The notes under the pieces: generated by a model
Seen by the model: the letters and a program-made list of their open reading frames with translations, nothing else
The model's database searches: none
Told to the model about the DNA's origin: nothing
Translations under genes and position numbers: made by a program
Assembly (NCBI GenBank): GCA_964016885.1
Contig: OZ024758.1
Span: 11,656,001-11,720,000 of the forward strand
Origin: Eledone cirrhosa
Taxonomy: Eukaryota
Length of the DNA: 64,000 nucleotides
Direction of reading: 5' to 3'
Shown here: positions 8,628 to 61,115 of the stretch, piece by piece
Layout: every line of letters starts with the position of its first letter
How positions within the stretch are numbered: position 1 is the first letter of the stretch

Positions 8628-8644
8628 TTTATATATATATATAT

Positions 8645-8842
8645 AACGAAGGAAATGTGGTAAGGATCCAGATGGACCATAACGCACCAAAGTACTCAAT
8701 ACTTAGGGTAGTAGAGTGGGTAATAGGAACGAGTAGGACCCCGACGGCTGAGCTCAAGCCGTTTCGACGGCTAATTCTGGACGTCCAGAATTAGCCGTCG
8801 AAACTGCTTGAGCTCAGCCGTCGGGGTCCTACTCGTTCCTAT
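8645..8842. mobile_element. Fold-back PLE pLTR, family C
   Basis: Arms meet at TTCTGGAC|GTCCAGAA; same sequence as the 3' end of the ORF-bearing copy at 25890-26035. Confidence 0.8.
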
Positions 8843-12306: not shown

Positions 12307-12386
<80 letters not shown>

Positions 12387-12390
<4 letters not shown>

Positions 12391-12578
12391 AACGAGTAGG
12401 ACCCCGACGGCTGAGCTCAAGCCGTTTCGACGGCTAATTCTGGACAGAATTAGCCGTCGAAACGGCTTGAGCTCAGCCGTCGGGGTCCTACTCGTTCCTA
12501 TTACCCACTCTACTACCCTAAGTATTGAGTACTTTGGTGAGTTATGGTCCACCTGGTTCCTTACCACATTTCCTTCGT

Positions 12579-12580
<2 letters not shown>
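12387..12580. mobile_element. Fold-back PLE pLTR, family C
   Basis: Short inverted arm plus long arm, flanked by (TA)n. Confidence 0.8.
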
Positions 12581-13136: not shown

Positions 13137-13375
13137 TAACGGAGGAAATGTGGTAAGGAACCAGGTGGACCAAAACGCACCAAAGTACTCAATACTTAGG
13201 GTAGTAGAGTGGGTAATAGAAACGAGTAGAACCCCGACGGCTGAGCTCAAGCCGTTTCGACGGCTAATTCTGGACTCCAGGTGGACCAAAACGCACCAAA
13301 GTACTCAAGACTTATAGTCCAGAATTAGCCGTCGAAACGGCTTGAGCTCAGCCGTCGGGGTCCTACTCGTTTCTA
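13137..13375. mobile_element. Fold-back PLE pLTR, family C, with an approximately 33-bp internal duplication at the junction
   Basis: CCAGGTGGACCAAAACGCACCAAAGTACTCAA at about 13161 and 13277. Confidence 0.8.
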
Positions 13376-24191: not shown

Positions 24192-24235
<44 letters not shown>

Positions 24236-24238
<3 letters not shown>

Positions 24239-24420
24239 AACGAGTAGGACCCCGACGGCTGAGGTCAAGCCGTTTCGACGGCTAGCTAATTCTGGACTTT
24301 TTTTTTAGTCCAGAATTAGCCGTCGAAACGGCTTGAGCTCGGCCGTCGGGATCCTACTCGTTTCTATTACCCACTCTACTACCCTAAGTATTGAGTACTT
24401 TGGTGCGTTATGGTCCATCA
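24236..24420. mobile_element. Fold-back PLE pLTR, family C
   Basis: Arms joined by TTCTGGAC-(T)n-AGTCCAGAA. Confidence 0.8.
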
Positions 24421-24440
24421 CATACATATATATATATATG

Positions 24441-24702
24441 AAGAAGTTATATTTAATTTGTTGGGATACAACAAGCAAATATTTTTATAACTGAAATATA
24501 AAGCACTCAACAAATTATTGGAGAAAAAATACAATATATTAACAAATGGAAACTATATATATATTTATATTTATTTGTTTATAAAACTGATCTATATTAT
24601 ATTTTATCTGATGAAAGCGCACCATAATTTGCTTTGGTGTCCTTGAAATATGTATAATGAAATAAATATGGTTTTATAAATATATTTTCTACTTGTTAAT
24701 AT
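24441..24702. mobile_element. Family A pLTR pieces with HHR at 24600-24664 (+)
   Basis: TATTTTAT-CTGATGA-AAGcGCACCA...TGGTGTcCTT-GAAA-TATGTATA^-ATGAAATA. Confidence 0.8.
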
Positions 24703-24918: not shown

Positions 24919-25152
24919 TTGAACCTCCAAGATAACAATATAACCTACAATCTCACTTGGGGCTTACTGTCCAGAGCTAACTCTTACACTGGAGGACTCC
25001 GTCCGTGTAACTTATGCTCGGAGGAAATATTACAAATGTTGTTTTCAAAGGACCAACTCCTAAACAAGAAAGATGAACTGGTAACCGCATGCAAACACAG
25101 ATTGCGTAGCACTCACCTCGCCCTCAAACCCTATAACGACCCGGGTGGGTAG
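24919..25152 (+). pseudogene. C-terminal fragment of a Penelope-like GIY-YIG endonuclease ORF (5'-truncated)
   Basis: [61 protein letters not shown] fits the PLE pattern Y.I.W.IL..A..Y...C.LC..E...LLNKR.EL...C(R/K)H. Confidence 0.75.
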
Positions 25153-25848
25153 ACAAGGGCTGATACGCCCCCCCACCCTTCACACTTGCCGAATAAGTTA
25201 GGGGAAACCCCAGCTTACATAGGTAAATGTATCTCTTTTCTTTTCCTCTTTGTCTCCTTCTTCCCCCTGTCTCATCCTATCCCTTGCTTCCACCCCCTAT
25301 TTTCTTCCTCGTCTGCTTTCTCCTTTCGCCTACCCAGATGCAACCCATCGGGCCTTGTAGCATCAGTTCCCCCACCCATGTTATTTTAAGATAGAATTGG
25401 CCGAATACGTTTTACTAACTACTTATAGCAGATGTGTTAATAACCCCTTTAAGTTTGTATCTGTTTTGTAATTTCTACAAGTTTTTTCTATTCTCAACTT
25501 ATTCACCTGTAATTGTAAGATAGCATTGTGATTTCTTTATTCATTTCACACTATCTAATTTTATATTTATTTTTTTTATTATTTATTTCTAGTATCTTTT
25601 ACTGTCTCCTACTCTCTTTCGATTTACCTATTCTATAACCTCCCTCCCCCACTTCATACACTATTCTTAGAATCTGATGTATACATATCACTTTCAACGC
25701 TTGACCGCTCCACTCACTCCCCTATTGTTATACAGGCAAGTTCAGCCACCCCTACCTCCCATCAAATGCCATGATAGACTTATTTGTGTTTACAACAAAT
25801 TTTAACCAATCCTCTTGACAACTACAATCTTCCCATATAAGGAAGTAC

Positions 25849-25942
25849 CCCCTTGAAAAGTTCGGCTATTTATTCACCAGGCTAAAAATTCTAATTTAGT
25901 CCAGAAATAGCCGTCGAAACGGCTTGAGCTCTGCCGTCGGGG
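25849..25942 (+). ncRNA. Long-armed type I hammerhead, U3-A8 core
   Basis: CCCC-TTGAAAA-G tt CGGCTATTT...AAATAGCCG t C-GAA-ACGGC ttgagctct GCCGT-C^-GGGG. Confidence 0.65.
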
Positions 25943-26051
25943 TCATACTTTTCCTATTTCCCACTCTAATACCATAAGTATTGAGTACTCTGGTGCGTTA
26001 TGGTCCATTTGGTTCCTTACCACAATCCCTTTGTTATATATATATATATGT

Positions 26052-26474
26052 ATTACTTCAAAATATTAATAAATATAGACATTCATATGATCAAATATAT
26101 TTTATTATACATATTTCAGAGGTACTGAGCTATTTCAACAGTACGTCCTCATCCGATAAAATAAATTGATGTCTGACATACCTTGACTGTGTTGATGGTT
26201 AAAACTCAGTCGTACCATGATTGAATTTTAACCATCAACAGAGTCAAGGTATGTCAGACATCAATTTATTTTATCTGATGAGGACGTACTGTTGAAATAG
26301 CTCAGTACCTCTGAAATATGTATAATAAAATATATTTGATCATATGAATGTCTATATTTATTAATATTTTGAAGTAATATTAATAACTCCAGAACACCTT
26401 ATTGTAGAATGCTTCTAATCTATTGTAAAACTTTATTCATTGATTAATTCATTGAACCTTGTTAAAATTTTAAT

Positions 26475-29835: not shown

Positions 29836-29880
29836 AGTCACTGAAGAGGTCACATAGTGTGTGACGAAAGGACTATGACT
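29836..29880 (+). ncRNA. Minimal type I hammerhead (singleton family)
   Basis: AGTCA-CTGAAGA-gGTCACA tagtg TGTGAC-GAA-AGGACT-A^-TGACT. Confidence 0.75.
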
Positions 29881-59700: not shown

Positions 59701-59892
59701 TAACGAAGGAAATGTGGTAAGGAACCAGGTGGACCATAACGCACCAAAGTACTCAATACTTAGGGTAGTAGAGTGGGTAATAGGAACAAGTAAGACCCCG
59801 ACGGCTGAGCTCAAGCCGTTTCGACGGCTAATTCTGTACTCAATTAGCCGTCGAAACGGCTTGAGCTCAGCCCTCGGGGTCTTACTTGTTCC

Positions 59893-59894
<2 letters not shown>
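59701..59894. mobile_element. Fold-back PLE pLTR, family C
   Basis: Same arms; centre TAATTCTGTACTCAATTA. Confidence 0.8.
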
Positions 59895-59923
<29 letters not shown>

Positions 59924-60541: not shown

Positions 60542-60970
60542 TGCACACATACACACACACACACATAGACACACACATGCACACAGACACACACGCATAC
60601 ACACACAAACAAACACATATACACACATACACACAGACACACACACACGCACACACACATATACACACACATGCACACAGACACATACACATACATACAC
60701 AGGCACACACACAGACACATAGACACACACATGCACACAGACACACACACATACACACACATACACACAAACAGACACATATACACACATACACACAGAC
60801 ACACACACGCACACACACACATATACACACACATGCACACAGACACATACATACACAGACACACACACAGACACATAGACACACACACACACAATATCAT
60901 CAACATCATCATCACCATATCATCATCATCGTCACCACCACCACCACCACATCACCACCACCAAATTCTT

Positions 60971-61112
60971 ATTTAGTCCAGAATTAGCCGTCGAAACGGC
61001 TTGAGCTCTGCCGTCGGGGTCATACTTGTTCCTATTACCCACTCTACTACCCTAAGTATTAAGTACTTTGGTGCGTTATGGTCCATCTGGTTCCTTACCA
61101 CAATTCCTTCGT

Positions 61113-61115
<3 letters not shown>
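60971..61115 (+). mobile_element. Family C pLTR, single arm
   Basis: Starts TTTAGTCCAGAATTAGCCGTCGAAAC and ends TTCCTTCGTTA(TA)n. Confidence 0.8.

Follow-up and report, generated by a model that had tools for sequence, protein, structure and literature searches.

A putative Hydra-clade Penelope-like element of Eledone cirrhosa with a large U3-A8 hammerhead motif and genomic scars at its predicted cut site

At the 3´ end of a Penelope-like element (PLE) in the cephalopod-derived DNA of Eledone cirrhosa, we found a large type I hammerhead with a U3-A8 core, which, judging from the genomic copies of this apparently Hydra-clade element, probably cleaves a minority of the RNA of the element in vivo, between GUC and GGGG. 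The starting point was one copy in a 64,000-nt stretch of the genome (the window, to which window positions below refer); pattern counts across the genome were made on an assembly of 3.0 Gb. We see directly the anatomy of the element, its tandem units, a core common to the whole family, 3´ ends at two fixed points, and scars at the cut site. The two-sided scars in the DNA likely record RNA that cut itself, and sometimes re-joined, in the living animal.

The window copy is 5´-truncated, comprises the last 1.1 kb of the element (24923..26036, plus strand, as are all of its parts), belongs to subfamily A and is inserted in (TA)n, with TA runs flanking it on both sides. Its source is a high-copy element in (TA)n. 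Many genomic copies are 91–94% identical to it over its full length and extend upstream into a reverse transcriptase (RT), and this continuity supports the PLE origin proposed in the initial annotation. The copy opens with an ORF remnant (24922..25152) encoding the C-terminal 76 aa of a GIY-YIG endonuclease domain, with the CxxC, E, N and CxH residues (CNLCSEE, LLNKKDEL, CKHR) and a TAG stop, and 87% identical to residues 642–717 of an intact 717-aa protein described below. The distance from the ORF stop to the hammerhead core is 701 bp, in agreement with the GIY-YIG-type C-terminus and the spacing of about 700 bp reported initially. Between them lies the pyrimidine-rich 3´ UTR, or pseudo-LTR body (25153..25839), which is ~700 bp long in subfamily A versus 930–1270 bp in the sister subfamilies.

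The hammerhead follows, beginning with the 5´ strand of stem I (25840..25852), in which the minimum-energy fold pairs a distal segment, AGGAAGUA, and a proximal CCCC (25849–25852). The core U3 U4 G5 A6 N7 A8 A9 reads UUGAAAA (25853..25859) and leads into a 56-nt stem II (25860..25915) made up of G10.1-C11.1, a small internal loop, a 9-bp helix (CGGCUAUUU/AAAUAGCCG) and a variable inner domain. After G12 A13 A14 A15.1 (GAAA, 25916..25919), of which GAA is invariant or nearly so in 28 aligned copies, comes stem III with a 9-nt loop containing the palindrome GAGCUC (25919..25937). Stem III had been given as 5–6 bp; five pairs stand (A25919-U25937 plus CGGC/GCCG), but the sixth position is a U-U mismatch in the window copy. 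GUC ends at 25938 and is directly followed by GGGG (25939–25942), which places the predicted scissile bond at 25938..25939, in other copies a hot spot for insertion starts and A/T-rich extra letters. The 3´ strand of stem I (25939..25957) runs to a "short" element end, ...TTCCTAT, ~20 nt past the cut site, and an optional "tail" of ~80 nt (25958..26036) runs to a "long" end, ...GTTA/TATATA.

Six further insertions in the window carry the hammerhead 3´ half, five of them head-to-head palindromes. One, at 8644..8842 (minus strand), consists of the hammerhead 3´ half plus tail with an inverted short arm; the other palindromes lie at 12386..12580 (plus), 13137..13367 (minus, with part of the tail duplicated at its centre), 24234..24418 (plus) and 59701..59895 (minus), and a single-arm 3´ stub lies at 60963..61114 (plus). 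The initial annotation had counted these six as copies of the 3´ half, which they are, but by tail sequence they mostly represent sister subfamilies and not the window copy's own. It had also seen the 5´ half in only one diverged copy; this is true within the window, but genome-wide there are thousands. The longer copies and full ORF that it hoped to recover were found, the latter as the intact 717-aa protein of a sister subfamily. The window also holds other hammerhead-like motifs. A canonical minimal hammerhead of another repeat family (CTGATGA ... GAAA TATGTATA) lies at 24608–24660 (plus), 300 bp upstream of the PLE copy. An insertion from another family, arranged as a head-to-head palindrome, directly follows the copy at 26047–26380; it contains a canonical CTGATGA minimal hammerhead at 26275 and a mutated version of it in inverted orientation. 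Two more canonical motifs with short stem II are found at 29841 (plus, CTGAAGA) and 34297 (minus, CTGATGA).

A protein search led to a younger sister subfamily, Y, with intact 717-aa ORFs combining RT and GIY-YIG domains in 3.5-kb tandem units. Y is the youngest subfamily, with 1.4% pairwise divergence, and its core is UUGAGAA. In one array, five hammerheads are spaced 3,542–3,543 bp apart, with an ORF between each pair and one hammerhead per junction; in the tandem units the ATG lies ~190 nt after the cut site. Stop-to-stop frames of 776–819 aa containing YRDD were present in 18 of 20 regions around long frames. The intact protein (P0001, 717 aa) is a single ORF with GLYRDD at 346 and a C-terminal VIY...YIG at 591. 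It has SDKT at 116 (DKT rather than DKG, and no ADKG elsewhere), LRWR at 36, the CxCX5C linker CNCPDRSIC at 572, CNLCSEE at 670, LNK at 688 and CKH at 698; a CCHH finger is absent, as judged from the list of Cys and His residues. Among 120 homologs of this protein, SDKT is present in 111 and LRWR in 107, and each Hydra-type motif is common to 107–118 except LN (98) and GIY-YIG (89). Searches of Pfam and PDB with the 717-aa protein gave no match. Its best homolog (P0002) is a 1,086-aa protein of Solemya velum, and it has more than 2,000 relatives, yet lacks a Pfam match.

The copies have the traits of endonuclease-bearing (EN+) PLEs: pseudo-LTRs, tandem copies, inverted 5´-truncated copies and an optional tail. 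The motifs, the (TA)n target and a by-eye likeness to published protein excerpts together point to the Hydra clade. We rejected identity with Hydra-1_Obim, as the protein excerpts available in the published account differ by eye (PMC8557442). We also rejected a non-LTR retrozyme, since the units are 3.5 kb long and encode RT and endonuclease, and are not non-coding tandems of a few hundred bases. The 3´ ends of copies cluster at two fixed points, ~+20 and ~+100 nt from the predicted cut; of the breakpoint histogram only the 3´ ends were used, as it is dominated by 2,768 matches starting at +60 and by loci chosen for full hammerheads. A tail word used as a further probe found no locus with more than 5 near matches. 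In mapped DNA contigs, short 3´ stubs are far commoner than full hammerheads. Many stubs start 30–45 nt before the cut, in the 3´ strand of stem II, which suggests a preferred fold-back or an RT stop there.

The minimum-energy fold of 25836–25960 is the three-way hammerhead junction (-33.6 kcal/mol, z -2.45, equalled by 2 of 200 shuffles), with all elements at the places initially assigned, and the proposed hammerhead register is supported. As in type I hammerheads, three helices surround the junction and the ends meet in stem I. In an alignment of 28 hand-picked copies, 94.5% of cells pair, against 29–49% with slid partners; for the proximal stem I helix the figure is 97.8%. U4, G5, A6, A9, G12, A13, U16.1 and C17 are invariant and G10.1-C11.1 is present in 28/28, while N7 can be any of the four bases: subfamily A has A or C there, D, E and Y´ have U, and B and Y have G. 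In three of ten stem II pairs both bases differ between subfamilies, and most of these changes fall on the single split separating E from the rest, so that this covariation reflects few independent events. As candidate partners for a tertiary contact between loop II and stem I, an internal loop in stem I and an inner domain in stem II are present, neither conserved in sequence, and the alignment gave no conservation of the inner hairpin of stem II. Three contigs of a second organism span the hammerhead core with no changed letter.

Folded singly, 4 of 10 copies (from A, Y, Y´ and F) have the hammerhead as their minimum-energy fold, with stem III probabilities of 0.75–0.99; in two C3-A8 copies and four old E copies it is not the minimum. 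RNAalifold on the 28 copies returned another consensus, in which stem III is replaced. The loop III palindrome is GAGCUC or UGAGCUCA, and for a pair of isolated stem III segments the predicted energy is -26.9 kcal/mol in the dimer, versus 2 x -6.5 for separate hairpins. Given the palindrome and this predicted dimer pairing, competence of the monomer, as initially proposed, remains a prediction. With 5 bp and a 9-nt loop in stem III, against 1–2 bp and a tiny palindromic loop in the minimal PLE hammerhead (min-HHR), the motif falls outside the minimal class; it does have the palindrome. Rfam reported no hammerhead at the window locus at E up to 10, and only microsatellite-driven miRNA matches in the window; this miss is expected because of the variant core and long stem II, and it fits the initial claim that such a UUGANAA hammerhead is invisible to CUGANGA descriptors. 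A separate hammerhead-like motif (CTGATGAG ... GAAAC) is inserted in one copy of the window's PLE family (L029, minus strand near 1130–1250); it has a canonical core and an even longer stem II, of ~85 nt.

The U3-A8 core is the state of the whole family and not decay. Exact patterns in the same stem II frame matched 3,801 times genome-wide for UUGANAA (U3-A8, including the window copy), 468 times for CUGANAA (a C3-A8 mismatch) and 4 times for CUGANGA (C3-G8), these three being the states that the counts cover, with U3-G8 outside them; leaving the core free gave 3,999 matches. A Watson-Crick 3-8 pair is thus present in the U-A matches and absent from the 468 with C3-A8. Among the complete 5´ halves of the best-matching copies, a sample biased towards the query, 23 of 24 read UUGA(A/C)AA. 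Copies in which A8 has become G kept U3 in nearly all cases inspected. The initial annotation had described U3-A8 as a known functional covariant and had named a CUGANGA consensus as the outcome that would count against it; the counts went the other way, and U3-A8 is indeed a published covariant in the available text of PMC4209133 and PMC3088659. Its description of the pair as "compensatory" was not borne out within the family: a search for a canonical C3-G8 ancestor subfamily found none, the older E also being UUGAUAA, and one lineage carried an unpaired C3-A8.

That lineage transposed, leaving at least 468 copies. A tree was built from the end of the endonuclease together with the 136 nt preceding the ribozyme, using 36 of 70 rows with A thinned to 12 and Y to 8. 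It places E, A and D (all U3-A8) outside, B1 and B2 (C3-A8) as a grade, and Y (U3-A8) within, together with B2 (99/99). Forcing the 11 C3 rows together was rejected (AU p 0.0005; two changes). The tree and the AU test indicate that, barring recombination, the 3-8 pair was lost and then regained, so that three natural core states would have followed one another: U3-A8, C3-A8 and U3-A8 again. U3 is rare in B-type bodies (16), and 11 of 51 matches represent a master that combines U3 with a body intermediate between those of B2 and Y. Loss of the pair accompanied a change of N7 to G, and it is conceivable, as speculation, that a shifted C3-G7 register took its place.

Scars in other copies fall at exactly the bond after 25938 where the initial annotation had predicted the cut, consistent with cleavage there. 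Among short inverted insertions, of which the first 100 of 1,016 matches (99 places) were analysed, position 0 is the start of 27 main arms and of 27 inverted arms. The seven nearby positions taken for comparison (+1 to +4 and -2 to -4) together hold 15 main and 14 inverted arm starts, giving a binomial p of about 1e-14 for the excess at position 0; position -1 (10 main and 9 inverted arms) is ambiguous and was excluded from the neighbour count. Other start peaks (-5, -7/-20 and -14) correspond to fold-backs at GUC and loop III palindromes, that is, microhomologies. Junctions with both arms at 0 contain 1–9 untemplated bases. For Y tails with a base other than C before GGGG (179 matches), 30 were viewed, and 20 were true junctions at G1.1 and 10 were point changes.

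We also searched for copies with at least 2 extra bases between -5 and +2, and read the first 100 of 129 by eye. Most were local duplications or G runs. Twelve matches (11 places) were A/T-rich inserts, all at GUC/GGGG; the position of one is ambiguous by a base, and another is altered on its left. The whole 5´ half of the ribozyme is retained in ten of the 11 (six Y, three C3-A8 and one of the window's subfamily). In the eleventh, both arms contain the same TAAAA, suggesting that the RNA already carried the insert. As three of the 11 two-sided scars are in C3-A8 copies, the scars do not track an intact 3-8 pair. In these three copies (L465, L470, L472) the second or third base of stem II is C (GCUC/ACUC), and the counting patterns did not capture this sub-variant. 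In another copy (L479, G000:C2:332356700-332361600), three tandem repeats of 64–66 nt each start at G1.1, as would result from repeated RT jumps out of the cut end and back into the tail. Many copies have runs of 6–15 G at the cut site, some in both arms, which may reflect slippage or untemplated addition.

Such scars are a small minority. The rate of clear both-arm cases, counted by eye against read-through copies, was lowest in subfamily A, the window's own U3-A8 subfamily (5 versus 3,583), compared with 3 versus 1,128 for the B1/D tail, 30 versus 7,578 for the B2c tail and ~52 (scaled from 37 of the first 52 places) versus 7,354 for Y; with single-arm junctions added, Y reaches roughly 1.6%. 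These rates do not follow the state of the 3-8 pair, and the B2c tail is found on both cores (38 of 51 C3, 13 of 51 U3). About 98–99% of copies run through the cut site, indicating that uncut or cleanly re-joined RNA is the main template.

These observations can be assembled into a model. Tandem units would be transcribed by read-through, and the element protein may nick (TA)n and start reverse transcription at two internal sites, as described for an anole PLE in vitro in the available text of PMC11167929. The two start sites would give rise to head-to-head insertions with one tailed and one untailed arm. Usually, cDNA would run through the site, on RNA that is uncut or has been re-joined seamlessly. 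The 3´ cleavage product would begin ~190 nt before the next ATG; with it as template, the cDNA would run off at G1.1, and a few untemplated bases would be added as it is joined. At times the 5´ product, which ends in C17 and apparently carries an A/U tail, would be put back onto G1.1 by ligation or template jump. In this model the ribozyme would cut slowly and only part of the time, setting the 5´ ends of units or producing circles, and some insertions would not depend on it. More tentatively still, and with somewhat less confidence than we would need to favor it, the scars may form a two-sided fossil record of in vivo cutting, A/U-tailing and re-joining, through a circle or template jump, that took place even in a lineage whose 3-8 pair (CUGAGAA) had stayed broken for a long time until U3-A8 was regained; this would imply an active C3-A8 or C3-G7 core, or cutting in trans between sister subfamilies via the palindromic stem III.

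Three other explanations bear on this model. Decay of CUGANGA to UUGAAAA in a single old copy, or a chance match to the motif, would suit a window copy about 6–9% diverged from its relatives, but the same core in nearly all of the best-matching 5´ halves, the ratio of 3,801 to 4 genome-wide and UUGAGAA in the youngest subfamily refute it, and we consider it vanishingly improbable. It is unlikely, though considerably less so, that the hammerhead is a catalytically dead or irrelevant relic, its structure kept for protein binding or RT start and its G1.1 ends set by a transcription start or an RT pause. Extensive read-through, the success of the C3-A8 lineage and an extra G at a few junctions, as from a copied cap, speak for such a relic, as does the anole PLE, which inserts in vitro without cleavage and for which the available text describes no cut-site RNA reads (PMC11167929). 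Against it, the ends coincide base-exactly with the scissile bond, the core positions are fixed while N7 varies, the youngest lineage regained U3, and the inserts have C17 to their left and G1.1 to their right. Neither transcription initiation nor a pausing RT explains an upstream half that ends at C17, since each yields a 5´ end only; inserts flanked by C17 and G1.1 are most simply read as cleavage with subsequent tailing and either re-joining or a template jump.

The third explanation is a serious possibility, although we lean slightly away from it: the hammerhead is real but active only as a dimer or with protein, its palindromic stem III pairing two copies. Such pairing would further allow trans cleavage of a C3-A8 partner by a U3-A8 core, in keeping with the cut-site scars in C3-A8 copies and with the existence of U3 masters carrying the same tail (13/51). 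The loop III palindrome and the greater predicted stability of isolated stem III as a dimer fit this explanation, and the anole PLE hammerhead is described in the available text as cutting only with protein (PMC11167929). The monomer junction, however, is the minimum-energy fold in A, Y, Y´ and F, and the units lie 3.5 kb apart. We consider self-cutting of a minority of the RNA by the hammerhead likely.

Whether PLE hammerheads cut in vivo, and to what purpose, has been at issue in the literature: the available text of a 2014 paper offers no in vivo evidence (PMC4209133), and that of a 2024 paper describes cleavage as dispensable in vitro (PMC11167929). The Eledone family has thousands of copies, intact ORFs in a young subfamily, three core states and base-exact two-sided scars, and its natural sequences make cleavage, re-joining, dimer dependence and tolerance at 3-8 directly testable. 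Against the model stands a deep-mutational scan in which, in the construct used and according to the available text, the 3-8 pair was rescued only by a G-C swap (Roberts et al. 2023, PMC9901934). The family also shows that hammerheads abundant in an animal can escape searches with CUGANGA or Rfam. A literature search, with most subscription journals outside its scope, returned no report of this PLE family or of such cut-site junctions in PLE copies. The clade and the core swap are known; what appears to be new, from the genomic copies, is the architecture, the precise genomic evidence for action in vivo and the natural loss and regain of the 3-8 pair.

Within the Hydra clade, represented by elements such as Hydra-1_Obim, the Eledone family shares the C-terminal GIY-YIG domain, DKT, RW(K/R), CxCX5C, and the CxxC and CxH around E and N, as well as (TA)n targets, an inverted 5´-truncated arm, an optional tail and a hammerhead in the pseudo-LTR (PMC8557442, available text). 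A CUGANGA hammerhead is stated there to be universal for the clade (Craig et al. 2021, PMC8557442), a rule to which the Eledone family is an exception. All 26 Hydra rows of File S2 have CUGANGA, a stem II of 3–7 bp with a 3–10-nt loop and a loop III of 1–3 nt, whereas the Eledone family has UUGANAA, a stem II of 54–56 nt, a 5-bp stem III closed by a 9-nt loop, and units of 3.5 kb. An 11-base hammerhead word had 0 hits in the accessible supplement of that paper, in which line breaks could hide one.

The U3-A8 core itself is not new, as it was published for PLE hammerheads in 2014: the available text describes it in the Cercyon PLEs of Schistosoma mansoni, with about 1,300 hits and no in vivo evidence (PMC4209133, Cervera and de la Pena 2014). 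Like the Eledone motif, the Cercyon hammerheads are type I, lie in a PLE pseudo-LTR, and have U3-A8, a palindromic stem III region and a longer-than-usual helix II; they differ in belonging to another clade and in having almost no stem III and a 7–8-bp helix II, against 5 bp and 54–56 nt in Eledone (PMC4209133). Natural U3-A8 hammerheads active in vitro, with the same 3-8 covariation, were also described by Perreault et al. 2011, in the available text with no tie to PLEs and no C3-A8 lineage (PMC3088659). The initial annotation had set the motif apart from minimal PLE hammerheads; the 5-bp stem III bears this out, but PLE-X1_sMoe, with a canonical core, is listed with a comparably long stem II (9 bp and a 34-nt loop; PMC8557442 File S2). 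The PLE ribozyme of Serpula lacrymans has a large stem III and cleaves as a monomer (PMC4209133). PLE-X1_sMoe and the fungal and protist PLE hammerheads have canonical cores, plant or fungal hosts and membership of other PLE groups (PMC8557442, PMC4209133, available text). In Poseidon PAc of Anolis, two internal RT start sites define the tail (Frangieh et al. 2024, PMC11167929), and the Eledone family resembles it in its two-ended tail signature, its AT-rich targets and the use of uncut RNA as main template. The two differ in that, according to the available text, Poseidon PAc has a canonical C3-G8 pair and no RNA-seq reads ending at the cut site, whereas the Eledone copies carry genomic scars at that site (PMC11167929).
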